Positions 1,211-59,289 are shown, counted from the stretch's first letter. The stretch is 64,000 nt of DNA from Pseudomonadota bacterium (GCA_039800105.1 JBDLRI010000025.1:2902-66901); one strand, 5' to 3'. Made by a program: numbers and translations. Notes: generated by a model not told the origin, from the sequence alone.

Positions 1211-2277
1211 CCGCCGCACTGGCACTGTGGTTCCTCGCCTGCGCGGGGTCTGCGGGGCCTGCTTCCGGGGCGGAGGGGGTCCCCCCCTCCGCAACGCCTC
1301 CCCCCGCGCCGGGGAAGCCGCCGACGGTGACGATGCAGGCCGACCTGCACCTGGACACCCCGACCCAGCTGCATCGTCGCAACGTCGGCCTCGACGCGAC
1401 GGGCCTGGAGGCCGGCCTCGCGCAGCTGCGGGCCGGCGGCACCAACCTCGCCGTCATGGCGCTCTGGCCCCCGCGGAGGACGGACGGGGAGGCCCATGTC
1501 GACGCGCTCCTCACGCGCATGGAGGCCGAGGACGCGCGCCTGGACGACGTCGTGCTCGTGCGTTCCCCCGACGAGGCGCGGTCCGCCGCCGCAGCCGGCC
1601 GCGTCGGCATCGTGTACGCGCTCGAGGGCACGCACGGCATCGACCGGAGCGGCATCCCCGGGCTGGAGAGGCTGCATGCGCGCGGGTTGGCGCTGCTCGG
1701 CCTGACCTGGACCTTCGACACACGCTTCGCCGGGTCGTCGGGCGGGAAGGGCACCGGCCTCACCGCCGACGGCCGCGCGCTGGTGGACGCGGCCAACCGG
1801 TTGGGCGTGCTCCTCGACGTGAGTCACGCCTCGCGCGCCACCACCCTCGAGGTGTGCGCGCGCTCCCGCGCGCCGGTGGTCGCCTCGCACTCCGACGCCC
1901 ATGTCCTCACGGCGCACCCCCGCAACCTCGAGGACGACGAGATCCGCGCCATCGCCGCCACCGGCGGGGTGATCGGCCTGAACCTCCATCGCCCGTTCCT
2001 CGGCGGGACCGGCGACCTCGCACGGGCCGCGGAACACGCCACGCACCTCAAGCGCGTCGGTGGCGCCGGCGTGGTCGCGCTCGGAACCGATTTCGACGGG
2101 CTCATCGTGCCGCCGCGTGACCTCCCGGACTCCGGCGGCATCGCCGCGCTGTGGCCGTTGCTCACGGCGCGCGGCTGGTCCGCCGCCGAAATCGAAGGGG
2201 TGCGCGGCGCGAACTTCCTCCGTGCATGGCAGGCCGCGCTGGCGACCGCCGGCACCCGCGCGTCCGGCACCCCGTAG
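1207..2277 (+). CDS. Membrane dipeptidase (peptidase M19 family)
   Basis: Distal part of ORF 19..2277. M19 pattern: DLHLDTP, ALEGTHGI, LGLTWTFDTRF, LLDVSHAS, VVASHSDA, VIGLNLH, ALGTDFDG. GTG 1207 overlaps the aspS stop (GTGA) and gives a hydrophobic N-terminus (ALALWFLAC). The alternative ATG 1333 would leave repeat copy 1265-1305 intergenic. Confidence 0.85.
   Translation: MTAALALWFLACAGSAGPASGAEGVPPSATPPPAPGKPPTVTMQADLHLDTPTQLHRRNVGLDATGLEAGLAQLRAGGTNLAVMALWPPRRTDGEAHVDALLTRMEAEDARLDDVVLVRSPDEARSAAAAGRVGIVYALEGTHGIDRSGIPGLERLHARGLALLGLTWTFDTRFAGSSGGKGTGLTADGRALVDAANRLGVLLDVSHASRATTLEVCARSRAPVVASHSDAHVLTAHPRNLEDDEIRAIAATGGVIGLNLHRPFLGGTGDLARAAEHATHLKRVGGAGVVALGTDFDGLIVPPRDLPDSGGIAALWPLLTARGWSAAEIEGVRGANFLRAWQAALATAGTRASGTP
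1265..1305 (-). repeat. GC-hairpin repeat copy (orientation B on the + strand)
   Basis: ccggggcggagggggtccccccctccgcaacgcctcccccc. Matches the family consensus. Lies after the aspS stop, in the 5' region of the dipeptidase ORF. Confidence 0.85.
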
Positions 2278-2284
2278 CCGCCCC

Positions 2285-3682
2285 CTACCAGGCGATCGTC
2301 GCGCGCCCCAGGCTCAGTTCCAGCCCGCGCAGGGCGTGTGCGCTGTCCCCGACGAGGTCCTGCCACAGCTGGCGGTCGCGGGTGCGGAGCGACGGGAGCG
2401 CGCGGTAGACGCCGTCGCGCTTGAGCCGCGCCACCGTCCCGGCCAGCTCGCGCGCCGCGAAGGTCACGTCCTCGAGCTGTACCGCGTCGGGAACGTACAG
2501 TCCGGTCGCCTGCATGCGGCCTGCCGTCTCCAGCCAGTGCCCGAGGAACTTGAGACGCTGCGCGAGCAGGCGCGTGCGCGCATCGGGCGCGCTCGCCAGC
2601 GTCGCGTCGATCTGTGCCAGCTCCTGCCGGAGCCGGTAGTGGTGCAGGGGCACCTGCGCCACCACCGCCGCGCGGTCCGCCGGCGTGCCGAACCCCCGTG
2701 CGATCGCGTAGGCCGCGCCTTGCAGCATGTGCGCGCCGCCGCAGGTGTAGCGGAACAGCGGCTGCCCGCTGCGCGAATACCCACTCCGGGTGCGCATCGC
2801 GTCCGCGAGGAACCCGGTCTCCTTGCGGAGCACCGCCACGACGAACCGCGCCACGCCGTCGAGATCCATCGGCGTTCCGTCGCGCGCGACCCACTGGAGG
2901 GCGGGTGTGGCCGCGGCCCTCCGCGTCGCAGCCGGCGCGTTGGACGCGTCGGCGGCTCCGGGCATCGGCGCCCACTGGGCCAGCGCCTGAAGGCTCCACG
3001 GCACGTCGTCCGGGCTGACGAAGCTCGCGTGGTTGCGTTGCGGTTCCAGCCAGGTGCGGAGCACGGTGTCGCGGTAGAGCGTCGCGAGCGTGACCTCACC
3101 GCGTCGCGTGCGCACGCGCAGGTCCGGCGCGAAGCCGGCCTCCCCGATGTTCTTCAGGAGCAGGTCGGTGTGCGGCTCGACGGGCACACCGTCGCGCTTC
3201 GCCGGGAACCGCAGCAGGACGCGACGCGCGCCGCGGAGCTCCGTCTCCTCGCGCTCCAGCCAGCCGTCGAACAGGTGCGTCAGGGGGTCGCTGCCGTCGG
3301 CCAGCCGAAGGGCCGCTCCGCGCGCCAACAGCGCGTGCGCGATGGCCCAGGGGTTTCCAGGCGCCGCCGCGTGGCGGTCCACCACCTCGCCGAGCGTCAG
3401 GATCGCAGCGTCCAACGTCGGTCCGGCGGGAATCGGGCGGGCCACGGCCGACCGCCGCAACGGCACCACGGGCACAAGGGTGTCGATGGTGCGCGCATCG
3501 TAGACCGGGGGCAGCGCCTGCGCGGGCGTGGCCGCGTCGGGGCCCGGCGTCGCACCGACGGGGGCCGGGGGCGCGGGCTCCGGCACAGGGTCGGGCGTCC
3601 CGCAGCCGGCGAGCCACGCGACCCCGATCGCCCGTGCGGCGCGCGCCGCACCGGCGACAAACGCACGCACCCGCGGGCTCAC
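2285..3682 (-). CDS. Hypothetical lipoprotein
   Basis: Distal 466 codons of ORF 2285..4522. GTG 3682 overlaps the stop of the upstream gene (GTGA). The N-terminus ...AARAIGVAWLAGC is lipobox-like. GC3-rich codon pattern; no family recognised by eye. Confidence 0.65.
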   Translation of the reverse strand: MSPRVRAFVAGAARAARAIGVAWLAGCGTPDPVPEPAPPAPVGATPGPDAATPAQALPPVYDARTIDTLVPVVPLRRSAVARPIPAGPTLDAAILTLGEVVDRHAAAPGNPWAIAHALLARGAALRLADGSDPLTHLFDGWLEREETELRGARRVLLRFPAKRDGVPVEPHTDLLLKNIGEAGFAPDLRVRTRRGEVTLATLYRDTVLRTWLEPQRNHASFVSPDDVPWSLQALAQWAPMPGAADASNAPAATRRAAATPALQWVARDGTPMDLDGVARFVVAVLRKETGFLADAMRTRSGYSRSGQPLFRYTCGGAHMLQGAAYAIARGFGTPADRAAVVAQVPLHHYRLRQELAQIDATLASAPDARTRLLAQRLKFLGHWLETAGRMQATGLYVPDAVQLEDVTFAARELAGTVARLKRDGVYRALPSLRTRDRQLWQDLVGDSAHALRGLELSLGRATIAW

Positions 3683-5472: not shown

Positions 5473-5527
5473 GGCACCTCCGCGCCGGCGACCTATGCCA
5501 CCCTGCGCCGTCTGCAACCATCCAGCT

Positions 5528-5562
5528 CCTGGGGCGGGGGCTGCCGCCCCCGCAACGCCCCC
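5528..5562 (-). repeat. GC-hairpin repeat copy
   Basis: cctggggcgggggctgccgcccccgcaacgccccc. Intergenic between the AAA/TPR gene and the discoidin/NHL gene. Confidence 0.85.
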
Positions 5563-5572
5563 GCCGGCGTGC

Positions 5573-8685: not shown

Positions 8686-9635
8686 GCCTCCCGGATGCTG
8701 GGGCGGAGGGGGTCGGCCACCCCCTCCGCAACGCCTCCCCCGCGGCGACGGTCGAGGCGCTGCGCGCGCGCATCGAGCGTGCCGTCGTCGGCAAGCGGCA
8801 GGTGGTCGATCTCGCCCTGACCTGCGTGCTCGCCGGCGGGCACCTGCTGCTCGAGGACGTGCCGGGCGTCGGGAAGACCACGCTCGCCGTGGCCCTCGCG
8901 CGCGCGACGGGCGGCAGCTTCCGGCGCGTCCAGTGCACGGCGGATCTACTGCCCTCCGACGTCACGGGGGGGCTGATCCTCGACGGCGCGGGCAGCCTGC
9001 GCTTCCGCCCGGGCCCCCTCTTCGCGAACGTCGTCCTCGCCGACGAGATCAACCGCGCCACGCCCCGCACGCAGTCCGCGCTCCTGGAGGCCATGAACGA
9101 GGCGCAGGTCAGCGTCGACGGCGAGAGCCACCCGCTGCCCTCCCCCTTCCTCGTCGTCGCGACCCAGAACCCGCTCGACGTGCACGGCACCTTCCCGCTG
9201 CCGGACGCGCAGCTGGACCGGTTCCTCGTGCGCACGTCGGTGGGGTATCCGCCCCGCGACGCCGAGCGCGCCATCCTGCGCGGCACCGCGGACGGCAGCA
9301 CCATCGAGCCGGTGGTGCCCGAGGCGCTCGCCGCGCTTCGGGCCGCCGTCCGCGCCGTCACCGTGCACCCCGACCTGGAGGACTGGGTCCTCGACCTGGT
9401 GGCGGCGTCGCGGAGCACGGGAGCGTTCGCGCGCGGTGTCAGCCCCCGCGGCGCGCAGGCGCTGGTGGCCGCGGCGCGCGCCCACGCGGTGCTGCACGGG
9501 CGCGCGTGGGTCAGCCCCGAGGATCTCCGCGCCCTCGCCGTGCCGGTTCTCGCGCACCGCGTGCTCGTACGGGACGACTCCGACCCCGCCGCAGCGGTGC
9601 GGGCGCTCGCGGACTCGCTGCCCCCCGCCGCATGA
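8682..9635 (+). CDS. MoxR-family AAA+ ATPase
   Basis: Distal part of ORF 8253..9635. Walker A LLEDVPGVGKTTLA, Walker B VVLADEINRA, ATQNPLDVHGTFPLPDAQLDRF. GTG 8682 overlaps the upstream stop. Repeat copy 8698-8741 lies in the first 20 codons, so the true start may be further downstream. Confidence 0.9.
   Translation: MSLPDAGAEGVGHPLRNASPAATVEALRARIERAVVGKRQVVDLALTCVLAGGHLLLEDVPGVGKTTLAVALARATGGSFRRVQCTADLLPSDVTGGLILDGAGSLRFRPGPLFANVVLADEINRATPRTQSALLEAMNEAQVSVDGESHPLPSPFLVVATQNPLDVHGTFPLPDAQLDRFLVRTSVGYPPRDAERAILRGTADGSTIEPVVPEALAALRAAVRAVTVHPDLEDWVLDLVAASRSTGAFARGVSPRGAQALVAAARAHAVLHGRAWVSPEDLRALAVPVLAHRVLVRDDSDPAAAVRALADSLPPAA
8698..8741 (-). repeat. GC-hairpin repeat copy
   Basis: ctggggcggagggggtcggccaccccctccgcaacgcctccccc. 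Lies at the lipoprotein/moxR junction. Confidence 0.85.
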
Positions 9636-10552: not shown

Positions 10553-12531
10553 CCCCCGCGGGGGAGGCGTTGCGGTGGGGGCAGCCGCCCCCTCCGCCCC
10601 AGCATCGACGCGGGTTCGATCCGCTGGCCGTCGTGATGCTCGCAGCCCTCGGAACCCTGTCGCTCGGCGGCGGCGTGTTCACCGTCGTGGCCGGCCTGGC
10701 CACGCTCGGATGCCTGTGGCCGCGGGTCGCTCCGGTCCCCCGACGGGAGGACTGGAACCCGGTCCACGCGGGGGTGCTCGTGCTCGCGATCGGGGTGGCG
10801 TTCGCCACGGAGGTCGTCGCGGGGCTCGCCGCCCTCGCCGCGTGGCTCCTCGTGCAGCAGCGATGGGCGCGGGGCCCCGACGCGGGCCGCAACGTGCTTC
10901 TGCTCGCCACGCTCGTGCTGCTCGTCGGCTCGCTGCGGGCGGACCACCCGGTCCTGGGCGTGTTGTTCCTGTCCTTCGCGGGGGCGCTCCCCCTGGCGCT
11001 GCTGGCGCTGTTGCCGTGGGGCCCCGATCCCGGACCCGGTCGCCCGGCGCGCGCCGCCCTCGCCGGCGGCACGATGCTCGCCACGGCGGTCCTGTTCGCG
11101 ACCATGCCGCGCCTGGAGGGCGGCCTCTTCGGCACGGAACCGGTGACGCAGGGGCGTTTCCCGACCGACATGGAGCCCGGCTCCGGCGCACTCACCAGCG
11201 ATGACCTCGCGCAGGTCATGCGGGTCCGCGTCACGACACCGGACGGCGTCCCGATCCCCGGCCCGGTGTACGTGCGCGCCCGCGTGCTGGAGCAGTTCGA
11301 CGGCAGGCGATGGACCGCCGGGACCCCGCCGGAGCCGATCCCGCCGCTTCGGCCGAACGTGCGCGCCGAGGTGGAGCTCGACGCCGAGCCGGGCATGCAG
11401 CTCTACGGCGTCGGGGAGATCCTGCGGATCGACGGGGCCCCCGGCGTGCACCGCGTCGCGGAGGGGGTGTTCCAGCACCGCGCTCCCGGGCAGCCCCTCG
11501 CGTACGTTGCCTGGGGACACCGCGCCGAGGACGGGACGCCGCTCTCCACGCCGGAGGAGCGCTGGGTGGCGCTGCCGCGCGACCTGGACCCTCGCATCGG
11601 CGCGCTGGCCTGGTCGGTGGCCCGCGACGCCGCACCGGCGTCGGTCGTCGAGGCGCTGCACGCGCTGCTGATGCGGGACTACCGCTATGGCCGGGAGCCC
11701 GAACCGAGCACGCCCGACCCGAGCGCGGCGTTCCTGTTCGCCCGAAGGACCGGCAACTGCGAGCACTTCGCGAGCGCCCTCGCCCTCCTGCTGCGGGCCC
11801 GGGGCATCCCCGCACGCGTGGCGACGGGCTTCTACTCGGAGGAGACCGACGCGGAGGGCCGCGCCGTCATCCGGAGGGGACACGCGCACGCCTGGACCGA
11901 GGTACGAACGCTGGACGGGTGGCGCACGCTGGACGCGACCCCGCCGGGCGGTCTGCCGACCCCCGAGAGCGCCGGCCTCCGCGCGCGCGTCGCCACGCTC
12001 GTCGGCGCGTGGTACCGCGTGATCGTCGGGTACGACATGGAGGCCCAGTTCGCCGCGTACGGCCTGCTCGGGCGCCCGCTCGTCGGGGCCGGCGCGGGCG
12101 GTGCCGCCCCCTTCCGCGCCGGCATCGTCGGCATGCTCGCGACGATCGCGGCCCTGACGGTGGGACTGGGCGCCCTGCGGCTGGGCGTGGCGGCATGGTC
12201 CGGCGCCGGGCGCGTTCCCGACGATCCGATGCGGGCGGCCGCGCGCACGGCCCGGGAGGTGGTGGCGCGGGCGGGCCACCCGCTCCCGGAGCACCTCCCG
12301 CTGCGCGAGGCCGCGGCGTGGCTGGCGGCACGGGCGGGCACCCCGGCCGGCGCCGCCTTCGCCGCGTTTGCCGATGCCTGGTACGCCGCACGGTACGGCG
12401 GAGACACGGCCGCCGCCGCCGGGCTCGCAGACCGGCTCGACGCGCTGCGCCGCACGATGCGCGCAAGAACGAAGACGCCGACCCGGCAGGGTCGGCGCAG
12501 GTGGTGGGCGATACTGGATTTGAACCAGTGA
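10549..12531 (+). CDS. Transglutaminase-like membrane protein (TgpA-like)
   Basis: Distal part of ORF 9436..12531. GTG 10549 overlaps the DUF58 stop (GTGA). Multi-TM N-terminal region and a transglutaminase core RTGNCEHFASALALLLRARGIPARVATGF...HAWTEV...DATP. Repeat copy 10560-10602 follows the candidate start. The 3' end overlaps tRNA-Val in antisense. Confidence 0.85.
   Translation: MTPAGEALRWGQPPPPPQHRRGFDPLAVVMLAALGTLSLGGGVFTVVAGLATLGCLWPRVAPVPRREDWNPVHAGVLVLAIGVAFATEVVAGLAALAAWLLVQQRWARGPDAGRNVLLLATLVLLVGSLRADHPVLGVLFLSFAGALPLALLALLPWGPDPGPGRPARAALAGGTMLATAVLFATMPRLEGGLFGTEPVTQGRFPTDMEPGSGALTSDDLAQVMRVRVTTPDGVPIPGPVYVRARVLEQFDGRRWTAGTPPEPIPPLRPNVRAEVELDAEPGMQLYGVGEILRIDGAPGVHRVAEGVFQHRAPGQPLAYVAWGHRAEDGTPLSTPEERWVALPRDLDPRIGALAWSVARDAAPASVVEALHALLMRDYRYGREPEPSTPDPSAAFLFARRTGNCEHFASALALLLRARGIPARVATGFYSEETDAEGRAVIRRGHAHAWTEVRTLDGWRTLDATPPGGLPTPESAGLRARVATLVGAWYRVIVGYDMEAQFAAYGLLGRPLVGAGAGGAAPFRAGIVGMLATIAALTVGLGALRLGVAAWSGAGRVPDDPMRAAARTAREVVARAGHPLPEHLPLREAAAWLAARAGTPAGAAFAAFADAWYAARYGGDTAAAAGLADRLDALRRTMRARTKTPTRQGRRRWWAILDLNQ
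10560..10602 (+). repeat. GC-hairpin repeat copy (orientation A)
   Basis: gggggaggcgttgcggtgggggcagccgccccctccgccccag. Lies at the DUF58/transglutaminase junction. Confidence 0.85.
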
Positions 12532-12576
12532 CTCCTACCGTGTGAAGGTAGTACTCTTCCGCTGAGTTAATCGCCC
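12502..12576 (-). tRNA. tRNA-Val (anticodon CAC)
   Basis: Minus-strand 75-nt cloverleaf folded by hand: acceptor GGGCGAT/ATCGCCC, D stem ACTC/GAGT, anticodon stem CTACC/GGTAG with loop TTCACAC, T stem ACTGG/CCAGT with loop TTCAAAT, and an encoded CCA. Confidence 0.9.
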
Positions 12577-24144: not shown

Positions 24145-24264
24145 GTCGTAGCCGCCTTGCGGCGCGACGCAAGGGCCGGCGGCGCGACCGCGCGCGAACG
24201 CGGGTGCGCGCGCCGGGGGCGTGGCCTACCGTGGTGCGGCCGCGCAACGCGGTAGACCCTCCGC

Positions 24265-25695: not shown

Positions 25696-25717
25696 CCTGC
25701 GACGAGGGGAGCATGTC

Positions 25718-28362: not shown

Positions 28363-28367
28363 TGCGG

Positions 28368-28409
28368 ATGGGGGCGGAGGGGGGCAGCCCCCTCCGCAAC
28401 GCCTCCCCC
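28368..28409 (-). repeat. GC-hairpin repeat copy between convergent genes
   Basis: atgggggcggaggggggcagccccctccgcaacgcctccccc. Fills the 54-nt gap between the OYE and hsp20 stops. Possible bidirectional terminator (inference only). Confidence 0.85.
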
Positions 28410-39011: not shown

Positions 39012-39021
39012 TCCCCTCTCC

Positions 39022-42264: not shown

Positions 42265-42269
42265 GGACG

Positions 42270-42707
42270 TCAGTCCCCGGTGGACATGGTCGCCGACGAG
42301 ATGTCGGCGTTGGCGTCCTCGCCACCCTCACGGCCATCCTTCCCGAGGGAGATGATCTCGTACGCCGCGCTGCCGTTGCCGGGGCTGCGGTACTGGAACG
42401 CGTTGCCCCACGCATCCGTGGGGACGGTGTTGTTGGGGAAGAACTTCTTGGCCGCGTCGAGGCCCTCGCCGGTGGAGGGGTACTTGCCGCGGTGCTTGGC
42501 CGCGTAGGTCGTGAGCGCCGACTCCATGTTCTTGATCTGGATCTTCGTGGCGGACGCGTTCGCCTCGTCCAGGTAGCCGACGACGTTCACGGCCACGACG
42601 GTCATCAGCACGCCGATGATCGCGATGACGACCATGATCTCGACGAGGGACATGCCGCGACGGCTGGCGAGGGTGGAGGCGGAGAGGCGGGAGCGGGCAG
42701 CGTTCAT
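42270..42707 (-). CDS. gspG: Type II secretion system major pseudopilin G
   Basis: Distal 145 codons of ORF 42270..42779, ATG 42707. Leader SRRG-MSLVEIMVVIAIIGVL. Conserved GspG core YPSTGEGLDAA, DAWGNAFQYRSPG, YEIISLGKDG. Confidence 0.92.
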   Translation of the reverse strand: MNAARSRLSASTLASRRGMSLVEIMVVIAIIGVLMTVVAVNVVGYLDEANASATKIQIKNMESALTTYAAKHRGKYPSTGEGLDAAKKFFPNNTVPTDAWGNAFQYRSPGNGSAAYEIISLGKDGREGGEDANADISSATMSTGD

Positions 42708-42711
42708 CGGT

Positions 42712-43944: not shown

Positions 43945-43947
43945 GCG

Positions 43948-45666
<1,719 letters not shown>

Positions 45667-45667
45667 G

Positions 45668-48295: not shown

Positions 48296-49317
48296 CGGAC
48301 CTCGTAGTCGAGCGTCTGCCGCTGGTTGCGGCGGGAGATCTCGAAGTTGAAGGCCTTCTCGTTGCGGAGGGACTGGTAGAGGGCGAGGGCCCCCTCGGTG
48401 CTCGTCATCGCCTGGCCGTTGATGGCGTGGACGACGTCGCCGTTCTTGATGCCGAGCTTGTCGAAGAGGCTGCCCTTCCGGATCGCCGAGAGGCGGAATC
48501 CGTCGACGTTGCCGCTGCCGTCCTTGTGGGGCACGGCGCGCAGCTGCCCGGCGAAGCTCTCGAGGTTGCCGAGGGCGCTGTCGAGCAGCGAGCGGTCGAC
48601 CTGGTACTTGTTCTCGCCGATCTTCTCGACGGTGCCGCCCTCGCCGGACGCGGACGCGACCGCGGCGCCGGGCGCAGGCGGTGCCTGCTCACCGATGCAC
48701 ACGCAGGTCCCGTCCTCCATGCACACCTTCTTCTGCTCGATGCGGGCGATCCGGCCGCCGCCGGGCACCTCGTCGCCGATCGCGAAGCCGTCGGCCTTCG
48801 CCTCCCGCGCGGCGCCCAGCGCCAGCAGCGCGGAGCTGAAACGCTCCGGGATGGCCACGATGGTGGCGAGGAGCCGCACGTTGGCGTCCGCGCGACAGGT
48901 CCACTCCCCGACGACCGTCACGCCGGGGCGGTACACCCCGGCGCTGTCGAAGATGCTTCGCCGCACGATCGGATCCACGTAGCTGGCGCGCGGCATGGCC
49001 ACGGGGCGCTGCGGCGCCTCGACGGCCGGCGCCTCCGCCGGCGGCTCGGCGGACCCCGGCTCTCCGGCCCGGGCGGGTGCCTCCGTGCCGGCGGCCGGCG
49101 CGGCAGCGGGCGCCGCGACGTCCTGGTACGTCGGCAGGGTCTCGCCGCCCGGCAGGGCGAGCATGCGACCCACCCCGCGCGCCGCGAGCGCGCCCGACCC
49201 CACCCCCGCCAGCGCGAGCGCGGCGCCGACGAGCAGCACGCGGCGCACGGGGACCGGCGCGGCCTGCACCTCCGGCAGGTCGGGCGGGGTTTCCGCGAGA
49301 GGAAGTTCGTCGTCCAT
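48292..49317 (-). CDS. gspC: Type II secretion system protein C (PDZ-containing)
   Basis: Distal part of ORF 48292..49380 (TTG). ATG 49317 is preferred but the start is uncertain. TM VLLVGAALALAGV. C-terminal PDZ-like GFRLSAIRKGSLFDKLGIKNGDVVHAINGQAM. Confidence 0.8.
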   Translation of the reverse strand: MDDELPLAETPPDLPEVQAAPVPVRRVLLVGAALALAGVGSGALAARGVGRMLALPGGETLPTYQDVAAPAAAPAAGTEAPARAGEPGSAEPPAEAPAVEAPQRPVAMPRASYVDPIVRRSIFDSAGVYRPGVTVVGEWTCRADANVRLLATIVAIPERFSSALLALGAAREAKADGFAIGDEVPGGGRIARIEQKKVCMEDGTCVCIGEQAPPAPGAAVASASGEGGTVEKIGENKYQVDRSLLDSALGNLESFAGQLRAVPHKDGSGNVDGFRLSAIRKGSLFDKLGIKNGDVVHAINGQAMTSTEGALALYQSLRNEKAFNFEISRRNQRQTLDYEVR

Positions 49318-51116: not shown

Positions 51117-52438
51117 TGGCCGGGCGTCGGCCGCCGCCGGGTCCCGACGCGCCGGGCGCGTGGCGACACGCCCGTCCGACGGGGGTCCAGGGGGCGGCGC
51201 CCCCTGGCGGGGCGTTGCGGGGCGGCGCCCCGCCCCAGGGAAAGCCAGCCTCCGCGCGGGACGACGGCAGGCTGCACGTGAACGCCTACAGCGAGGGGTG
51301 GCTGCGGAAGGGCTTTCCGTGGGTCTACCCCGCGGAGATCACGGCGGGCAGCGTGCGTCCGGGCCGTGCGACGCAGCTGGTGGCGCCCGGCGGCGAGGTG
51401 CTGGGCACGGCCATCGCCGACGACGGCTGGATCGCGGCGCGGCGCTTCCGCGACGATGCCGGCGACATCGACGGGGCGCTGCTGCGCGCGCGGGTGGAGG
51501 CGGCGCTCCGTCGTCGTGCGGGGCTGATCCCGCCCGACACCACCGCCTGGCGACTGGTGCATGCCGAGAACGACGACCTGCCCGGCATCCGCGTCGACGT
51601 GTGGGGCGCGCATGCGGTCGTGTCCCTCGACTCCCCCTCCCTCACGGGGCTGCTCGCGCCGCTTTGCGACGCCGTCGAGGCGGTGATCGGCCCGCGGGAG
51701 GGCATCCACCTGGCGCACCGGCCCGACCCGCGGGAGAAAGAGCGGCGGTCCTGGCCCCGCGAACCGGGCCTGCTGCGCGGGTCCGATCCCGGCGAGATCG
51801 AGGTCCTCGAGCGGGGCGTGCGGTTCCGGGTGCGCCCCGGCGATGGCCAGAAGGACGTCGGGCTCTACCCGGACATGCGCGACAACCGCGCGTGGCTGGA
51901 CCCCCACTGGCGGGGCCGCTCGCTCCTGAACCTGTTCGCGCACACCTGCGCCTTCAGCGTGTTCGCGGCGCGGGCCGGCGCCGCCTCCACCGTGTCGGTG
52001 GACCTGTCGGCGGCCTACCTCGAGCGCGGTGCCGCCAACTTCCGCCACAACGGCCTGCCCGTGCCGGAGCTGCTCGCGGAGGACTGCTTCCGCGCGCTGG
52101 ACCGCTTCCGCCGGCAGGGCCGGACCTTCGACGTGGTGCTGCTCGACCCGCCGGGACACAGCCACGGACCCGAGGGCACGTGGTCCGGGGAGCGCGACTA
52201 CGCCCGCCTCGTGCTCGGCGCGCTGCGGGTCCTGGCCCCGGGCGGGTGGCTCGTGGCGGCAAGCAACCTCGGCACCGTGAGCCCCCACCGCTTCCAGGGC
52301 ACGCTGCTCGACGGCGCCCGCCGCGCGGGACGCACGCTGCGCCTGCTGCACGACGGCGACGCCGCGCCCGACTTTCCCGCGGCGCTGGCGTTCCCCGAGG
52401 GCCGGTACCTGAAGTTCATGATTTGCGCGGTGGACTAG
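51116..52438 (+). CDS. Class I SAM-dependent rRNA methyltransferase (RlmI/RlmK-like)
   Basis: ORF 51116..52438. KGFPWVYPAEI (PUA-like start), WRLVHAENDDLPGIRVD, LNLFAHTCAFSVFAA, VVLLDPP, LVAASN. ATG 51116 shares one nt with the upstream stop. The alternative GTG 51278 would leave repeat 51187-51240 intergenic. Confidence 0.82.
   Translation: MAGRRPPPGPDAPGAWRHARPTGVQGAAPPGGALRGGAPPQGKPASARDDGRLHVNAYSEGWLRKGFPWVYPAEITAGSVRPGRATQLVAPGGEVLGTAIADDGWIAARRFRDDAGDIDGALLRARVEAALRRRAGLIPPDTTAWRLVHAENDDLPGIRVDVWGAHAVVSLDSPSLTGLLAPLCDAVEAVIGPREGIHLAHRPDPREKERRSWPREPGLLRGSDPGEIEVLERGVRFRVRPGDGQKDVGLYPDMRDNRAWLDPHWRGRSLLNLFAHTCAFSVFAARAGAASTVSVDLSAAYLERGAANFRHNGLPVPELLAEDCFRALDRFRRQGRTFDVVLLDPPGHSHGPEGTWSGERDYARLVLGALRVLAPGGWLVAASNLGTVSPHRFQGTLLDGARRAGRTLRLLHDGDAAPDFPAALAFPEGRYLKFMICAVD
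51187..51240 (+). repeat. Composite GC-hairpin repeat copy
   Basis: The near-palindrome ccagggggcggcgccccctgg is followed by cggggcgttgcggggcggcgccccgccccaggg. The block ggggcggcgcccc occurs twice. Confidence 0.75.
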
Positions 52439-52461
52439 GCGTGCCGCTCCGTGCCACGGCT

Positions 52462-52505
52462 CCTGGGGCGGTGGGGGGTCCACCCCCCTCCGCAACGCCT
52501 CCCCC
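52462..52505 (-). repeat. GC-hairpin repeat copy
   Basis: cctggggcggtggggggtccacccccctccgcaacgcctccccc, between the methyltransferase stop and the hydrolase core. Confidence 0.85.
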
Positions 52506-52509
52506 GGGC

Positions 52510-55008: not shown

Positions 55009-55032
55009 GCGCGCCCATGGTACGCTCGCGGG

Positions 55033-56538
55033 ATGCGAATCCTTCCTGCCCTGGCGGGCGCGGCGGCACTCGTCGCGGTGCCGGCGCACGCCACCGACAC
55101 GTGGACGAACGTACGGCCCGGCATCGACTACCTCTACCGTGAGCTGGGCCCGCCGAAACCGCAGCGGATCCACGCCGTGCGCGTCGACCTGTCGGACCCG
55201 CGGATCGGCATCCACGCCAGCGCGGACCTGCGCGGTCAGGAGTGGGCGGTCAACACCCTGGCCTTTGCGCGCAACACCGACGCCATCGTCGCCATCAACG
55301 GGGACTGGGCGTACATCGAGGGAACCGGCGACGCGTACCTGCGCCCCGCGAGCCTCGCGATCAGCGAGGGCAACCTGTGGAGCCCGCACTGGCCGTACGC
55401 CAACACCGTGGAGAGCTGGGGCTACGTCGCCTGCACGCTCGACAAGCAATGCACGCTCTCGTTCGCGCCGACGCTCGACAACCCGGGCATGGTCTTCCAT
55501 CCGCTCCAGAACCCGACCGTGTGGCCGCTCCGGTACTACAACGCAGTGGGTGCGAACGCGGTGCCGGCCCTGGTCCACGGCCAGCGCGTGGACGGGTGCT
55601 ACGACGGGCAGACGAACGCGCCCCGAAGCTCCGCGTGCACGGAGATCGACGGGACCCACCTGTGGCTCGTCGTCGTGGACGGACGCAACGCCGCCGGCGG
55701 GGAGTCCGGGATGAGCTGCGACGAGGTGCGCGATCAGCTGCTCACCCTCGGCTGCCACGAGGCGATGTTCCTGGACGGGGGCGGGAGCTCCACGCTGGTC
55801 GTGGACGACCAGGTCAAGAACACGCCGTCGGACGGTGGACTGCGCACGGTGGCCAACCACTTCGGCATCACGTGGGACGAGGTCGCCGACCCGCGGTGCC
55901 GGAAGGCCAACGGACGCTGGTGCGACGGCACCGTGATCGCAGCCTGCGCCGGAGGGCGCTACAAGGGGGACGGGGACTGCGGCTACTTCGGCGCGGGCTG
56001 CCAAGAGGACGGGGACTTCGCGTTCTGCGTGCACCCCTCGTGCCCGGACGGAAACGGCCTGCGACACAACGCGTGCCTCGACGCGACGCGCGTGGCGGGC
56101 TGCAACGACGGCCAGTACTCCGAGGGCGACTGCGGGGCCTTCGGGCTCGTCTGCGGCGGGGACCGCGGGAGCGCGCAGTGCATGGACCGCCGCTGCGCGG
56201 GGCCGAACGCCGCGCGCTGCGACGGCGCCACGCTCGTCGCGTGCACGGACGGCATCGCGACCCTGACCGACTGCGCCGCGCAGGGACTGGAATGCCGCGC
56301 GTCCGCGGCGGCGTGTGTCACGCCCGGGACGCCGGAGGACACGGCGACGTCGACCGGAACCTCCCTGGACGCGGGTGACGCGGGAACCGGGGACGACGCG
56401 TTCGACGGGACGCCCGCCGGCTTCACCGACCGCGGCTGCGCCTGCGACGCCGCCGGTGGCGTCCCGCTGCTCCCCGCGCTGCTCGCCGCGCTCGGCGCGC
56501 TGGATCGACGACGCCGGTCCGCCGACGCGGCGCGGTAG
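55033..56538 (+). CDS. Phosphodiester glycosidase (NAGPA/DUF2233-like) with Cys-rich modules and MYXO-CTERM tail
   Basis: ORF 55033..56538. Signal peptide MRILPALAGAAALVAVPAHA. AIVAINGDW, LWLVVVDGR, GMSCDEVRDQLLTLGCHEAMFLDGGGSSTLVV. About 150 aa of repeated Cys modules. Tail FTDRGCACDAAGGVPLLPALLAALGALDRRRR. Confidence 0.8.
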   Translation: MRILPALAGAAALVAVPAHATDTWTNVRPGIDYLYRELGPPKPQRIHAVRVDLSDPRIGIHASADLRGQEWAVNTLAFARNTDAIVAINGDWAYIEGTGDAYLRPASLAISEGNLWSPHWPYANTVESWGYVACTLDKQCTLSFAPTLDNPGMVFHPLQNPTVWPLRYYNAVGANAVPALVHGQRVDGCYDGQTNAPRSSACTEIDGTHLWLVVVDGRNAAGGESGMSCDEVRDQLLTLGCHEAMFLDGGGSSTLVVDDQVKNTPSDGGLRTVANHFGITWDEVADPRCRKANGRWCDGTVIAACAGGRYKGDGDCGYFGAGCQEDGDFAFCVHPSCPDGNGLRHNACLDATRVAGCNDGQYSEGDCGAFGLVCGGDRGSAQCMDRRCAGPNAARCDGATLVACTDGIATLTDCAAQGLECRASAAACVTPGTPEDTATSTGTSLDAGDAGTGDDAFDGTPAGFTDRGCACDAAGGVPLLPALLAALGALDRRRRSADAAR

Positions 56539-56553
56539 CCCACCAAGACCGGC

Positions 56554-56591
56554 GGGGGGCGTTGCGGGGGGCAGCCAGCCCCCCGCCCCAG
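56554..56591 (+). repeat. GC-hairpin repeat copy
   Basis: ggggggcgttgcggggggcagccagccccccgccccag, intergenic between the two NAGPA-like paralogs. Confidence 0.85.
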
Positions 56592-56618
56592 CCTTCCCGA
56601 CCGTGCTAGCATGCACGC

Positions 56619-58334
56619 ATGCGACCGCTCCTCGCCGCCGTTGCCACCCTGCTCGCGCTTGCCGCCCCCGCCCATGCCACCGACTACGAGCGGGTGGTCC
56701 GGCCGGGCATCACCTCGTTCAAGCGCCTGATCACCGGAAGCGAACCGCAGAACATCTACGCGGTGCGCGTGGACCTCACCGTCCCCAACATCGGACTGTA
56801 CGCCTCGGCCGACCGCCGCGGCGACGAGTGGGCCGTGGACACCCTCGACTTCGCCGAGGAGGTCGATGCCATCGCGGCGCTCAACGGCGACTGGTCGTGC
56901 ACGAGCTGCAGCGGCAACAACTACCTCAAGCCGCTGGGGCTCGCGATCAGCGACGGCGTCATGTGGCACAGCCACCGGCCGACCGATGACATCGGCACGC
57001 GTTGGGGGTACTTCGCCTGCACCATCGACAAGCGCTGCGACCTGACCCGCGCGCGCATGCTCGATGACCCGACGATGGCCACGAGCCCGCTCCGGACCCC
57101 CACGGTCTACCCGCTGCGCTACCACCAGGCGATCGGCGCCAACGGGCTGAACCTGCTCACCGACGGCGTGCGCGGGAACGGCTGCTTCGACACCTCCCAG
57201 TCCAACCCCCGCAGTGCCGCCTGCACCGACATCACGGGCACGATCCTGTGGCTCTTCGCCATCGACGGGCGCGGCGTCGGCGGCGGCACCGGCATGAGCT
57301 GCGCGGATGTCCGCAACCTTCTCCTCGACGCGCCCTTCAACTGCTGGGACGCGGTCATGCTCGACGGCGGCGGGTCCACGACCCTCGTCGTGGAGGACAC
57401 GAACACCAGCGCCTCCTGCAACCCGCGCGGCCGCAACAACCTGTGCGTGAAGAACCACCCGTCCGACGGCAGCCTCCGCAACGTGGGCAACCACATCGCC
57501 ATCACCTGGGAGGACACCATCGACGGGCGGTGTCGCCACGCCAACGGCATGTGGTGCAACAACGGCGCCCTCGAGACCTGCCAGGGCGGGCGGTTCAAGA
57601 CGTCCACCAACTGCGCGGCCGCCGGCAAGGGCTGCCAGGAGGACGGCACCTTCGCGTTCTGCGTCGACCCTCGCTGCCCCGCCGGCAACGGCCTGCGCGT
57701 CGGCGGCTGCCTCGACGCGACGCGCATCGCCAGCTGCAACGACGGCGTGTACGCCGAGGGCGACTGCGCCGGTTTCGGCCTCGTGTGCGGCGGCACCCCC
57801 GGCGCGGCGCAGTGCATGGACGCGCGCTGCGGCATTCCCGAGGGCGGCGCGTGCGTGGGCAGCGTGTGGACCCGCTGCAGCGCGGGCACCTACGTCGAGG
57901 CCGTGGATTGCGCGTCCTCCGGCCTGGTGTGCGACAACGGCGCGGGCTGCGTGACCCCGAACAGCGGCGGCGGCGGGTCGGGCACCGGCACCAGCGGCGG
58001 CGGCACCGGCACCGGCGGCACGAGCGGCGGCGGCACCGGCACCGGCGGCACGAGCGGCGGCACCGGCACCGGCGGCAACCACGGCGGCGGTGCCGGCAGC
58101 GGCGGGGATGACACCCACGCCACCGGGTTCGATGGTGGGTTCGGCGACTCCGGCCTCGAGGGCGCGCACGCATTCACCGATCGCGGCATTTCCTGCGGCT
58201 GCGCGTCGCACGCCGGCGGGACTCCGTCGGTACCGGCGTTGCTGGGACTGATCGTCCTCGCCGGTGCGCGGCGGCGTCCCGACGGCCAGACCCGTGACCG
58301 GGCGCGGCTGGCTCCCCGGACGATGCGCGCCTAG
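56619..58334 (+). CDS. Phosphodiester glycosidase (NAGPA/DUF2233-like) paralog with Cys-rich modules, Gly/Thr repeat and MYXO-CTERM tail
   Basis: ORF 56619..58334. Collinear with the previous gene (AIAALNGDW, LWLFAIDGR, GMSCADVRNLLLDAPFNCWDAVMLDGGGSTTLVV). Has a GGGTGTGGTSG repeat. Tail FTDRGISCGCASHAGGTPSVPALLGLIVLAGARRR. Confidence 0.8.
   Translation: MRPLLAAVATLLALAAPAHATDYERVVRPGITSFKRLITGSEPQNIYAVRVDLTVPNIGLYASADRRGDEWAVDTLDFAEEVDAIAALNGDWSCTSCSGNNYLKPLGLAISDGVMWHSHRPTDDIGTRWGYFACTIDKRCDLTRARMLDDPTMATSPLRTPTVYPLRYHQAIGANGLNLLTDGVRGNGCFDTSQSNPRSAACTDITGTILWLFAIDGRGVGGGTGMSCADVRNLLLDAPFNCWDAVMLDGGGSTTLVVEDTNTSASCNPRGRNNLCVKNHPSDGSLRNVGNHIAITWEDTIDGRCRHANGMWCNNGALETCQGGRFKTSTNCAAAGKGCQEDGTFAFCVDPRCPAGNGLRVGGCLDATRIASCNDGVYAEGDCAGFGLVCGGTPGAAQCMDARCGIPEGGACVGSVWTRCSAGTYVEAVDCASSGLVCDNGAGCVTPNSGGGGSGTGTSGGGTGTGGTSGGGTGTGGTSGGTGTGGNHGGGAGSGGDDTHATGFDGGFGDSGLEGAHAFTDRGISCGCASHAGGTPSVPALLGLIVLAGARRRPDGQTRDRARLAPRTMRA
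57965..58100 (+). repeat. Tandem ~30-bp coding repeat (Gly/Thr/Ser linker)
   Basis: The unit agcggcggcggcaccggcaccggcggcacg occurs at 57993-58022 and 58023-58052, followed by a shortened third unit. It encodes SGGGTGTGGT repeats in the second NAGPA-like protein. Confidence 0.8.
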
Positions 58335-58359
58335 GCTGTACCCATACCGAGAGAGATCC

Positions 58360-59241
58360 ATGACCCTGTCCAACGGGCGCGTGTGCGCGCTCCCCCGCCC
58401 CGCACGCGTCGCGGCCTTGTTCCTCTGCCTGTGCGCCCCGGCGTTCGCGAAGCCCGGGGCCACGCCGTCCGTCGCGGCACCGGGAACCCCGACGCGCTCC
58501 GGAACCGTGCTCGTCACGGTGAACGGCCAGGCGGTGACCCAGGACATGCTGGACTCGGCCTTGGCCGCCATGCCCGCCGACGTGCGCGACCAGGTCGTGT
58601 CCCAGGGCCTGCAGGCGCGCCTGCGCGACCACATGGTGCTGCAGGAGCTGCTCTGGCAGGAGGCGGTCAAGCGCGGCCTCGCGACCGAGCCCGCGGTACA
58701 GGCCGCGCTCGTGATGGCGGCGCGCGATGTCCTCGCGAACGCGGTGCTCGAGGCCGAGACCGGGCGCCGGAGTGACCCGGCCGCGGTGAAGGCCTACTAC
58801 GACGCCCACCCCGAGCACTTCAAGCGCCCGCAGGTCCACGCGCGTCACATCCTCGTGCCCGACGAGCCCGGTGCGCGCGACGCGCTCGCGAAGGTCAAGG
58901 CCGGAGCCAGCTTCGCCGACGTCGCCCGCACGGTCAGCCGCGACCCCGGCAGCGCCGAGAACGGCGGCGACCTGGGCTGGTTCGAGCGCGGCACGATGGT
59001 CCCCGAGTTCGAGGCGGCCGCCTTCGGCGCCGCGACCGGCGCGCTCGTGGGGCCGGTCAAGTCCCAGTTCGGCTGGCACGTCCTCGAGATCCTCGGCACG
59101 CGCGACACGGTTCCCCTCGAGGAGGTCCGCGAGGGCATCGAGGAGAAGCTCCGCGACGAAGCCCGCACGAGCTGGATCGAGGAGCTGCGCTCCCGGGCGA
59201 CCATCGTCCCCGGCGGACCCGGCGCGTCGTCGACCCCCTAG
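58360..59241 (+). CDS. Peptidylprolyl isomerase (parvulin/PpiC type, SurA/PrsA-like)
   Basis: Distal 293 codons of ORF 58264..59241, ATG 58360. Signal peptide ...AALFLCLCAPAFA. Parvulin core ARHILV, NGGDLGWFERGTMVPEFEAAAF, GPVKSQFGWHVLEI. Confidence 0.88.
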   Translation: MTLSNGRVCALPRPARVAALFLCLCAPAFAKPGATPSVAAPGTPTRSGTVLVTVNGQAVTQDMLDSALAAMPADVRDQVVSQGLQARLRDHMVLQELLWQEAVKRGLATEPAVQAALVMAARDVLANAVLEAETGRRSDPAAVKAYYDAHPEHFKRPQVHARHILVPDEPGARDALAKVKAGASFADVARTVSRDPGSAENGGDLGWFERGTMVPEFEAAAFGAATGALVGPVKSQFGWHVLEILGTRDTVPLEEVREGIEEKLRDEARTSWIEELRSRATIVPGGPGASSTP

Positions 59242-59252
59242 CGCGTGCGGTT

Positions 59253-59289
59253 CCTGGGGCGGGGCCTCGGGCCGGCCCCGCAACGCCCC
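59253..59289 (-). repeat. GC-hairpin repeat copy between convergent genes
   Basis: cctggggcggggcctcgggccggccccgcaacgcccc, between the PPIase stop and the methyltransferase stop. Confidence 0.8.

Follow-up and report, generated by a model that had tools for sequence, protein, structure and literature searches.

The closest described counterparts of the repeat presented here are the BoxC, PIT (potential intrastrand triplex) and TMECO repeats of Escherichia coli and other Proteobacteria (Holder et al. 2015, PMC4666352), for which earlier work by Hoyne/Maher and Bachellier is cited in the same paper. Holder et al. define the ITxF as three consecutive blocks on one strand, with a stem of 6–15 triads and short loops. 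For the TMECO repeat, an analogous G/C-rich motif, CD and NMR show a triplex that withstands temperatures up to about 75 °C; a stable triplex was not seen by DMS footprinting in vivo (PMC4666352).

The family under study is an interspersed G/C-rich repeat of ~42 bp, found about once per 4 kb in an uncultured Myxococcota genome, and judging from its sequence it is probably defined by an intrastrand (fold-back) triplex. It was analysed in a 64-kb stretch of DNA, called the window, and in a few metagenome assemblies of related organisms. With BoxC/PIT/TMECO it has in common a length of ~37–45 nt, three consecutive G/C-rich arms on one strand (ARM1 to ARM3), G.G-C, A.A-T and T.A-T triads, and a turn with TT that joins the purine arm to the third arm. 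Both groups are interspersed, mostly intergenic and present in both orientations, have no associated transposase and undergo small deletions that leave a hairpin. The purine arm, its Watson–Crick complement and the mirror third arm of the ITxF definition are all found in the family. A preliminary description of this DNA recognized no described family; this stands for the sequence, as no description of the sequence family or its strand order was found in the literature within reach of the search, but the intrastrand-triplex kind is already described (PMC4666352). The Myxococcota host, proposed earlier and borne out, sets the family apart from BoxC/PIT/TMECO, as do copies lying in frame within genes. 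Its local density is far higher, 15 per 64 kb versus 23 TMECO copies per E. coli K-12 genome, and while TMECO copies hardly differ from one another, the arms of this family show both variation and covariation.

REP, BIME and REPIN elements, mobilized by RAYT (TnpA-REP) transposases of the Y1/HUH kind whose genes usually have REPs on their flanks, are likewise short, GC-rich, palindromic and high in copy number, and lie in short gaps after genes. Further likenesses are subfamilies, a variable loop on a conserved stem and persistence at orthologous sites in close relatives. With 15 copies per 64 kb, the family is a short imperfect extragenic palindrome of high copy number, as REPs are. Unlike REPs and REPINs, it has neither a GTAG/CGTC tag nor the REPIN doublet organization, and no RAYT was found in the DNA searched; to our knowledge, a third arm with mirror symmetry has not been described for REPs. 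Another comparison is offered by the homopurine/homopyrimidine mirror repeats of H-DNA, since ARM1-TT-ARM2 is a purine-rich mirror repeat, which is the sequence requirement of H-DNA. However, H-DNA uses a duplex and leaves one half-strand unpaired, whereas here the arm complementary to the hairpin's purine arm is present as well, and a single strand supplies all three; the mirror arms are also just 8–10 nt, unlike in H-DNA. Finally, the eukaryotic and viral ENE elements (MALAT1, PAN RNA) are RNA triple helices that protect 3′ ends, with U.A-U triads clamping an A-rich tail. Copies oriented with the C strand as sense would similarly place a hairpin and a major-groove third strand near transcript 3′ ends, but their triads in RNA would be almost all C+.G-C.

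Architecture and copies of the repeat

The G-rich strand of the element reads ARM1, CG-TT-GC, ARM2, a loop of 3–7 nt, ARM3 and a CCCAGGA tail. ARM1 is GGGGGAGG or G4–8, and ARM2 and ARM3 are the arms of a hairpin, whose free energy as DNA, under duplex-only folding, is about −13.5 kcal/mol. ARM1 is the mirror image of ARM2, and neither a direct nor an inverted copy of it. The CGTT turn and the CCCAGGA tail are conserved in position-by-position base counts, which gave no conservation or repeats past positions −10 and +7. By the classes of Holder et al. (2015, PMC4666352), this layout makes the G strand a predicted class I intrastrand triplex and, automatically, its complement a class III one. 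TMECO (class II/IV) runs pyrimidine–purine–third strand, and the present family (class I/III) third strand–purine–pyrimidine; along the G strand, the third strand comes first, at the 5′ end, whereas class II puts it 3′. The TMECO consensus, CCCTCNCCC N3-6 GGGNGAGGG N3 GGGNGAGGG, has no match in the window, and the CCCAGGA tail and the CG..GC frame around TT are the family's additions to it. The hairpin with an unpaired GTTGC bulge drawn in the preliminary description is correct as to the hairpin, but the GC of GTTGC forms the first two stem base pairs, and what precedes GTTGC on its 5′ side is a third arm, a mirror of the stem that changes along with it. Both R positions were written in the earlier consensus; the co-variation of the 5′ one, which belongs to the third arm through mirror symmetry, was missed.

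Terminal inverted repeats, the MITE hallmark, are absent from the element, and so is the MITE combination of these with target-site duplications. There is no T run of an intrinsic terminator, the sequence after the hairpin being CCCAGGA on one strand and AACGCC on the other. In Rfam, a tRNA-Val is the sole match of the whole window at gathering score, and nothing appears around 19042 at E-values up to 1.

All 15 clear copies lie where they were first reported, and the two degenerate ones are as described. In the following list, the strand is the one bearing the G-rich version.

1263–1304, minus: A-type copy between aspS (5–1210, plus) and an M19 dipeptidase gene (1327–2277, plus)
5527–5565, minus: G5-type copy, intergenic between two minus-strand genes; ARM1 GGCGGGGGCG mirrors ARM2 GCGGGGGCGG
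8696–8741, minus: A-type copy upstream of a MoxR-type AAA gene
10560–10604, plus: A-type copy with a T/T mismatch; A of ARM2 changed to T, ARM1 keeps A
14528–14570, minus: degenerate copy; tail and hairpin kept, ARM1 and CGTTGC turn (GCAACGC) gone
14668–14712, minus: degenerate copy; ARM1 and turn (GCAACGCCCCC on the plus strand) kept, hairpin disrupted
19042–19083, plus: exemplar A-type copy inside the C-terminal tail of a subtilase ORF (18991–20445, minus), beyond the Pfam domain
19042–19051, plus: ARM1 (third strand) of this copy, GGGGGAGGCG
19052–19053, plus: its TT turn
19054–19063, plus: its ARM2, GCGGAGGGGG
19064–19066, plus: its loop
19067–19076, plus: its ARM3, CCCCCTCCGC
19077–19083, plus: its tail
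23086–23126, minus: G-type copy in frame within a methylpurine-DNA glycosylase gene (22770–23387, plus)
25651–25689, plus: G6-type copy supplying the last codons of the SelO ORF (24265–25695, plus)
28367–28409, minus: A-type copy filling the 54-nt gap between convergent OYE oxidoreductase (plus) and HSP20 (minus) genes
34103–34146, minus: G8-type copy between RND efflux operon genes; stem with a G.T wobble
35404–35447, plus: G-type copy, intergenic, minus-strand genes on both sides
45717–45758, plus: A-type copy within the variable C-terminal tail of gspD (45668–48274, minus)
51205–51240, plus (entry 51187–51240): G4-type copy with an extra palindrome, CCAGGGGGCGGCGCCCCCTGG, 5′ of it
52461–52505, minus: A-type copy with an A/A mismatch; T of ARM3 changed to A on the G strand
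56552–56593, plus: G6-type copy between two NAGPA-family genes
59252–59293, minus: G4CC-type copy filling a convergent-gene gap; ARM1 GGCCGGGGCG mirrors ARM2 GCGGGGCCGG

A loose tail search found no further copies in the window. The family is mostly intergenic, as first proposed, with a few of the clear copies inside ORFs. An example of a genic copy is 23086, which encodes the loop MGRGGAPPRNAP. In the SelO copy, the stop TGA of the SelO frame overlaps the last tail base (25689) and ends four bases later (CCCCAGGTGAATAG; ORF end 25695). The CCCCCTGG at the 5′ side of the 51187 copy is complementary to the tail, and this subtype also occurs in the related contig L063.

The repeat of the first account is real and not a product of chance. 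The strict core pattern has 6 matches in the window versus 0.00 in 100 dinucleotide shuffles. A generic search, which required a perfect all-purine arm of at least 6 nt with loops of 1–8 and 1–10 nt and no family core, gave 11 perfect class I motifs in the window versus 0.1 per shuffle, 1 in 562 kb of unrelated DNA (at least 65% GC), and no class II motifs in the window. All 11 are family copies or adjoin one (51181–51205, the palindrome beside 51205), and 5 of them have at least 8 perfect triads.

Covariation of the three arms

From the window and related metagenome contigs, 169 copies were parsed with a search pattern that left ARM1 free; since they descend from subfamily masters, the independent co-variation events are fewer, perhaps ~8–10. 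At position 5 from the TT centre, the triples of ARM1, ARM2 and ARM3 are G.G-C in 92 copies, A.A-T in 68 and T.A-T in 4, and ARM1 never has G or C opposite an A-T pair (0/72). At position 6, AAT occurs in 3 copies. The triads seen are G.G-C, A.A-T and T.A-T, exactly those of the purine (R) motif (PMC4666352), in which the third strand runs antiparallel to the purine one. The T-for-A variant of ARM1, present at 3 different loci, is allowed only in this motif, on G-strand DNA. Two features depart from the purine code, the GGCC subtype and a conserved C at position 2; the C.C-G triads that the CG/GC beside TT and this subtype require would fall outside the purine motif and count against a triplex.

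Rare subtypes keep all three arms matched. In one, the A is shifted to position 6 (GGGGAGGGCG TT GCGGGAGGGG..CCCCTCCCGC; L143, L144); the others are an AA subtype (L189) and the GGCC subtype (window 59252). Longer G runs in ARM1 go with longer ones in ARM2 (rho 0.67 in the G type, 0.47 in the A type). In 147 of 162 copies ARM1 has the length of ARM2 or is one shorter, although an ARM1 shorter by one G, in about a quarter of copies, speaks against a triplex.

Over 45 distinct arm combinations, ARM1 and ARM3 in parallel register are 92.1% complementary versus 80.2 ± 1.5 when shuffled. Their covariation is 0.327 versus 0.139, a value reached by 0 of 500 shuffles, and slid registers give at most 0.166. 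In the ARM2/ARM3 hairpin, 96% of cells pair, with double changes in 6 of 10 pairs and none of 500 shuffles equal, and the earlier proposal of a hairpin under selection holds. The co-varying stem position is likewise as first listed, A-T at 1265, 8698, 19042, 28368 and 45717 and G-C at 5528, 23088, 25653, 35405 and 56554; the pairing is broken at 10560 (T/T) and 52462 (A/A on the G strand). The first stem pair changes from G-C to A-T in three copies with ARM1 unchanged, which fits a turn that excludes the first pairs. The joint change of all three arms suggests that a three-stranded fold is under selection.

Distribution, conservation and spread

Among 124 copies with a callable upstream gene, 77 have a stop codon 1–94 nt before the copy (median ~9 nt). 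Such short gaps after stop codons are accompanied by an enrichment in convergent gaps, and a few copies lie within ORFs, in frame. Both orientations occur, as was first noted, but they are not fully independent of gene direction: after stop codons the sense strand is the C-rich version in 31:10 cases (p=0.0015), and in 25:10 within co-directional gaps.

Orthologous copies are identical at 436 of 440 positions versus 92.9% in the ±150-nt flanks (Fisher p = 4e-9). L214 matches the 19042 copy at 39/39 positions from ARM1 to the fourth base of the tail, with flanks at 76%, and the 45717 copy is 42/42 identical in L234 at a whole-match identity of 89%. The latter is missing from the orthologous gspD tails of L231–L233, and the 8696 copy from its orthologous place in L143. 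The reported identity of the 19042 and 45717 copies over 40 nt is confirmed. Identical cores recur in as many as 12 different flanking contexts and presence varies among relatives, which fits the spread proposed earlier. The machinery of this spread was not found: neither a transposase, as reported before, nor a RAYT is among the 39 of 51 window gene calls scanned against Pfam, and tblastn with an E. coli RAYT gave no credible match in 1.67 Mb of DNA, a weak test because the query was approximate.

An example of element instability is L236, a 99.7% identical strain, in which 3 of 6 differences from the window in 7.3 kb fall inside elements. They include a 15-nt in-frame deletion (23106–23120) between the C runs of ARM2′ and ARM1′. 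Such instability is of the kind reported for TMECO, although the differences could be assembly errors at the repeat.

Readings of the fold and proposed mechanism

A REP-like hairpin, with only the ARM2/ARM3 stem structural and the mirror relation a side effect of descent in subfamilies and of low-complexity G runs, would be an unlikely account. ARM1, CGTT and CCCAGGA could then be recognized, single-stranded, by a RAYT-like enzyme or another HUH enzyme, and conserved unpaired flanks are typical of RAYT-bound REPs. Alternatively, the ARM1 G run would pair with the tail CCC, giving the bulged hairpin of the preliminary description; the minimum-energy fold of the G strand indeed adds 3 bp between ARM1 GGG and tail CCC, with a 7-nt bulge. 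Subfamilies, short post-stop gaps and convergent-gap enrichment also resemble REPs. However, descent alone explains neither why ARM1 matches each new ARM2/ARM3 state (A5, A6, AA, G4–G8, GGCC) nor why T is the only recurrent alternative opposite A-T; slid registers score lower, a 3-bp ARM1:tail helix does not account for where the A lies, and both the failed RAYT search, weak as it is, and the missing GTAG or CGTC tag stand against it. Direct copies of ARM2 (GGAGGGGG) are what a switch with ARM1 and ARM2 competing for ARM3 would need, and there are none; instead ARM1 is the mirror, GGGGGAGG or T for A, in 72/72 A-type copies, which leaves A.C and G.T mismatches with ARM3. Even though G-type ARM1 and ARM2 are both G runs, either of which could pair with the ARM3 C run, and the L236 deletion leaves an ARM1′/ARM3′ hairpin, such a switch is very improbable; it and direct-repeat readings are contradicted by the A-type, A6 and AA subtypes. 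A G-quadruplex-forming repeat or chance G/C-rich low complexity is scarcely credible. Several G tracts lie on the G strand, and the TMECO CD spectrum also resembles a parallel G4 (PMC4666352), but the G4-type copies (GGGG CGTTGC GGGG) keep the full architecture with two G tracts only, a quadruplex has no need of ARM3 or the mirrored A, and shuffles and unrelated high-GC DNA hold essentially no such motifs; these observations contradict both.

The orientation bias directs attention to RNA. The transcript would read 5′-UCCUGGG-GCGGAGGGGG-loop-CCCCCUCCGC-AACG-CCUCCCCC-3′, and its C-rich 3′ arm would dock on the hairpin in a triple helix of the pyrimidine motif (C+.G-C / U.A-U), which would stabilize or define mRNA 3′ ends. 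The C-rich sense bias after stops would fit such an RNA-level role better than a strand-neutral role in DNA, and copies lie 1–22 nt 3′ of stops. At least 7 contiguous C+.G-C triads nevertheless need protonation, disfavoured at neutral pH. A quarter of post-stop copies have the other orientation, and between convergent genes each copy has it with respect to one transcript of the two; the T variant of ARM1 would place A opposite A-U, a triad foreign to the pyrimidine motif, and coding-region copies lie away from 3′ ends. RNA allows intrastrand triplexes of the pyrimidine type but not of the purine type, and PIT elements showed no terminator activity in E. coli (PMC4666352). A selected RNA structure is quite unlikely.

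The fold-back triplex, which would form on DNA rather than RNA, could arise when the DNA becomes single-stranded in a lagging-strand template, transcription bubble or repair gap. ARM2 and ARM3 would pair as a hairpin of 8–12 bp, and ARM1 would fold back antiparallel to ARM2 in the major groove. The contacts of ARM1 would be reverse-Hoogsteen G.G-C and A.A-T (or T.A-T) triads at ~6–8 positions, the two base pairs beside TT being duplex only. The family may be a REP-type non-autonomous repeat, moved to new, mostly post-stop-codon sites by a putative machinery. Copies with three matching arms would be those that persist or propagate, and the fold may have a role for the cell or for the element: by analogy with E. 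coli BoxC/PIT/TMECO, it would be expected to hold up polymerases and make slippage from arm to arm more likely.

Architecture of the repeat in the window

The 15 clear and two degenerate copies claimed in the preliminary description of a hairpin repeat family are all present on re-inspection of the window, which corresponds to one copy per 4.3 kb, and a loose search for the tail recovered no further copies there. The window has a G+C content of 74%. The strict inverted-repeat core occurs six times, compared with 0.00 in 100 dinucleotide-preserving shuffles, so that the motif is in excess over base composition. The identity of the copies at 19042 and 45717 over 40 nt is likewise borne out. The covariation of the purine/pyrimidine position in the stem was found as described, with the exception of a mismatch there in the copies at 10560 and 52462.

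Each copy was read on the G-rich strand and anchored at the invariant TT. The element starts with ARM1 (GGGGGAGG or four to eight G), followed by CG, TT, GC and ARM2 (GGAGGGGG or a G run), and continues with a loop of 3–7 nt and with ARM3, which is complementary to ARM2; GC and the tail CCCAGGA follow. Position-by-position base counts place the ends of conservation at −10 upstream and +7 downstream, and show neither terminal inverted repeats nor target duplications. The insertion boundaries come solely from these counts, since no filled/empty site pair was found among near-identical genomes in the relatives compared. This anatomy departs from the preliminary description in two respects. The "GTTGC bulge" is not wholly unpaired, because its GC supplies the two stem pairs nearest the turn, and the segment 5′ of GTTGC is the mirror image of ARM2 rather than loose flank, and represents a third arm which had been missed.

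Mirror relation of ARM1 and ARM2 around the TT turn (ARM1, turn, ARM2)
First example: GGGGGAGGCG, TT, GCGGAGGGGG
Copy at 5527: GGCGGGGGCG, TT, GCGGGGGCGG
Copy at 59252: GGCCGGGGCG, TT, GCGGGGCCGG

In one subtype (window 51187–51240, and about 245–290 of locus L063), CCCCCTGG lies 5′ of ARM1; its complement is found in the tail, CCAGGG(G), and pairing of the two could enclose the whole element in an outer stem. At 51187–51240 of the window, CCCCCTGG belongs to an extra 21-nt palindrome, CCAGGGGGCGGCGCCCCCTGG.

Three-arm covariation and the triplex reading

A first scan of the collection used an overly loose pattern and returned 110 loci, 106 of which were chance matches; the element was present in only four (L002, L015, L038 and L063, from three uncultured high-GC MAGs). 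The metagenome scan used the pattern CGTTGCGGRGGG N3-26 CCCYCCGCCCCAG, leaving ARM1 unconstrained, and matched at least 120 contigs. From the window and the metagenome matches listed, 169 distinct copies were parsed.

Among these, position 5 from the TT reads GGC in 92 copies, AAT in 68 and TAT in 4 (in the order ARM1, ARM2, ARM3), and ARM1 carries G or C opposite an A–T pair in 0 of 72. In rare subtypes all three arms change in step: A is placed at position 6 in GGGGAGGGCG TT GCGGGAGGGG ... CCCCTCCCGC (contigs L143 and L144), and an AA type occurs in L189. The G-run lengths of ARM1 and ARM2 are correlated among the matches listed (rho 0.67 in the G type and 0.47 in the A type), ARM1 being as long as ARM2 or one nucleotide shorter in 147 of 162 copies.

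The covariation counts were based on 45 distinct arm combinations, which blunts the effect of copy number. In this larger alignment the pairing of ARM2 with ARM3 is upheld, with 96% of positions paired and double changes at six of ten pairs, a level reached by 0 of 500 shuffles. ARM1 and ARM3, compared in parallel register over the 45 combinations, are 92.1% complementary, as against 80.2 ± 1.5 in shuffles. Their covariation is 0.327 versus 0.139; none of the 500 shuffles reaches it, and slid registers give at most 0.166. The parallel complementarity of ARM1 to ARM3 is a restatement of the ARM1/ARM2 mirror. In three copies, two of them in the triple table, the first stem pair changes from G–C to A–T with ARM1 unaltered; thus the pairs beside the turn follow the duplex rule only.

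A purine arm, its Watson–Crick complement and a mirror purine arm on one strand are laid out as in an intrastrand fold-back triplex. The purine motif, as described by Holder et al. (2015, PMC4666352), consists of G.G-C, A.A-T and T.A-T triads in which the third strand runs antiparallel to the purine strand, and the triads observed in the element are those of this motif. Class I denotes the order of a 5′ reverse-Hoogsteen arm, then the purine arm, then the pyrimidine arm (PMC4666352). The G strand of the element is of class I, and the complementary strand is automatically of class III. When perfect class I motifs were sought generically, with no requirement for the family core, 11 were obtained in the window versus 0.1 per shuffle. 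All 11 are family copies or adjoin one; the match at 51181–51205 is a palindrome beside the copy at 51205. The same generic search found no class II motif in the window, and in 562 kb of unrelated DNA with a G+C content of 65% or more it gave a single perfect class I motif.

Other structural readings break down at the A-type copies. An alternative hairpin, with ARM1 as a competitor for ARM3, needs a direct copy of ARM2, which is found in 0 of 72 A-type copies. G-quadruplex formation would draw on the G runs, but it does not require ARM3, and the G4-type copies are unable to form one. The predicted minimum-energy fold contains a 3-bp helix between ARM1 and the tail and reproduces the bulge of the preliminary description; it leaves the position of the A without a reason. 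The best explanation is that the repeat is an intrastrand-triplex repeat family. Its architecture and three-way covariation are observed directly; the triplex itself, the strand and molecule in which it would form, and its role are inferred. The variant with T for A in ARM1, found among the matches listed in three different loci with the same loop as a common A-type subfamily, fits the purine but not the pyrimidine motif, which is weak evidence that selection acts on the G-rich DNA strand. The earlier view of a selected, dispersed, REP-like hairpin is right in part; it overlooked the third arm and the literature on triplex repeats.

Genomic placement, host and spread

Genes were called with a home-made codon log-odds caller, whose class of ORF-internal copies is unreliable unless confirmed by Pfam or orthologues, as it was for gspD, the MPG glycosylase gene, SelO and the subtilase. 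According to these calls and Pfam, most window copies sit in short gaps, and several, including those at 28367 and 59252, take up all the space between convergent genes. Among the matches listed, a stop codon lies 1–94 nt before the element in 77 of 124 callable upstream genes (median about 9 nt), and convergent gaps are enriched about 3.4-fold per gap over co-directional ones. The intergenic gaps of this genome are so short (median 9–16 nt) that proximity to a stop codon is not in itself evidence of targeting, and the copies examined show no target-site duplication or other target motif. The AGGA of the tail was considered as the ribosome-binding site of the next gene; the distances to the start codon, judged by eye for the window copies, are inconsistent, and this reading was rejected.

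Orientation had been described as independent of gene direction. Among the matches listed, non-convergent copies within 60 nt after a stop qualify this: both orientations occur, though not at random, the sense strand being C-rich in a ratio of 31:10 (p = 0.0015), and A-type copies are rare in the G-sense orientation after stops. The bias may stem from the direction of replication, from a need to avoid G-rich transcripts or R-loops, or from a role at the RNA level. It seems unlikely that the three-stranded fold acts as a functional signal, either recognised by an unknown mobilisation machinery, so that a copy would spread only if its single strand forms the triplex, or serving as a bacterial triple-helix cap, of RNA or of DNA, which would define or protect 3′ ends. 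The 3:1 bias towards a C-rich sense strand after stop codons would fit such a cap.

Features of the window
12502–12576, − strand: tRNA-Val (CAC), the sole Rfam/ARAGORN match in the window
18991–20445 and 21169–22737: two subtilase genes, flanking an HmuY-like gene
18991–19083: subtilase ORF read through an element
22770–23387, + strand: methylpurine-DNA glycosylase gene with a full in-frame element at 23086–23126, encoding the loop MGRGGAPPRNAP
25651–25695: SelO ORF read through an element
36805–49317, − strand: complete type II secretion (gsp) operon (PDZ protein, GspD, E, F, G, minor pseudopilins, K, L-like, others)
45668–45760: GspD ORF read through an element
55078–56538 and 56619–58334: tandem NAGPA-family (phosphodiester glycosidase) genes, with an element between them

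Possible loop bases aside, all frames of the element are free of stop codons, and SelO, GspD and the subtilase therefore take C-terminal codons from their copies. In SelO the last codons come from the element and the TGA overlaps the final tail base, while the variable C-terminal tail of GspD holds an in-frame copy which its orthologues lack. The glycosylase element forms a surface loop in the alignment with homologues, whose overall protein length is matched. Such elements are thus tolerated in frame inside genes. The ORF call at 10633–12531 is probably too long, since the tRNA-Val overlaps its 3′ end.

The host belongs to an uncultured Myxococcota lineage: its GspE shares 98% identity with a protein from a contig in metagenome assembly JACCDP, and the named relatives are Myxococcota MAGs. 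The gsp operon is syntenic with Myxococcota MAG contigs (L231–L235), of which those at 79–88% GspE identity lack the repeat family. Relatives at this identity and 69–71% G+C contain no copy in 57 kb. The repeat is also present in L002 and L015, which derive from MAG CAYWGD01 (73% G+C), named [quoted passage not shown]; this label is almost certainly wrong. As reported before, no transposase lies nearby, none being found in the 39 of 51 window gene calls scanned against Pfam. A tblastn search for a RAYT-like gene over 1.67 Mb gave no credible hit, only an Arg-rich wrong-frame match (E = 0.09); with an approximate E. coli YafM query this is a weak test. Viral contigs gave 0 matches to the element, and Rfam none at gathering or E-value thresholds.

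Among the matches listed, 166 copies comprise 114 distinct cores and 70 loops, and the commonest identical cores recur in 12, 9, 8 and 6 different contexts; the family therefore consists of subfamilies that have spread. Orthologous sites at 70–78% nucleotide identity are empty. One gap shared at 76–78% identity by related contigs (L135 7151–7194 and L197 1868–1911, L175 4593–4631, and L121) is occupied by a G-type copy, by an A-type copy facing the opposite way, or by an unrelated hairpin and no copy, which suggests repeated independent acquisition at 3′-end gaps. Closer relatives keep the copy, and it is better conserved than its surroundings, with 436 of 440 element positions identical versus 3067 of 3300 within 150 nt on either side (Fisher p = 4e-9).

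The 99.7% identical contig L236 differs from window 18438–25729 by five substitutions and one indel in 7.3 kb. Three of these six differences lie within elements, and elements account for less than 2% of the compared sequence. Two are T to C substitutions at 19066 and 19072, one of which breaks an A–T stem pair. The third is a 15-nt in-frame deletion (window 23106–23120, in the glycosylase gene region that spans 4333–4935 in L236) between the C runs of two arms, which leaves a plain hairpin and a glycosylase loop five residues shorter. These differences point either to a hot spot of mutation or to assembly error caused by the repeat, and the repeats are candidate slippage hot spots. Many of the element-bearing metagenome contigs L111–L230 are short, with copies often no more than a few hundred bases from the contig end, and among the matches listed they contain one extra copy per 21 kb, whereas the window has one per 4.3 kb. 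Short-read assemblies of this lineage may be broken up by the repeat.

Relation to known triplex repeats

Knowledge of intrastrand triplex repeats in E. coli goes back to the work on BoxC/PIT. These BoxC/PIT/TMECO repeats are G/C-rich and always intergenic, show no strand bias and neither promoter nor terminator activity, and have been linked with local genome variability (PMC4666352). CD and NMR of the isolated single strand showed their triplex, whereas in vivo footprinting did not detect it (PMC4666352). Present in E. coli and other Proteobacteria, they are the closest described kind, sharing with the Myxococcota repeat the three-arm logic, the triad types, a TT-containing turn and the lack of a linked transposase; the arm deletion in L236 echoes the instability reported for TMECO. 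The Myxococcota repeat differs in its reversed arm order (class I/III, TMECO being class II/IV), its own tail, its much greater density here and its phylum, and the TMECO consensus has 0 matches in the window. Its likeness to REP sequences lies in distribution; it has no GTAG/CGTC tag, no REPIN doublets and no known RAYT. The preliminary statement that no described family matches therefore holds for the sequence family, which was not found in the searchable literature (subscription journals and the ITxF database being outside its scope), but not for the kind.

The TMECO copies are nearly identical and give no evolutionary test, whereas the Myxococcota repeat, abundant and variable, offers one. 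The choice between A and G, the position of the A and the arm length (4 to 8) vary in step across three arms. These changes follow the purine-motif triad code and the mirror register, which polymerase-based copying does not yield, and on this comparative evidence they argue that the third strand is under selection. The repeat probably breaks metagenome assemblies of this lineage. Its strand order is the reverse of that in TMECO (class I), it occurs in another phylum, at about one copy per 4 kb, and its natural variants are ready-made mutants for a biophysical test.
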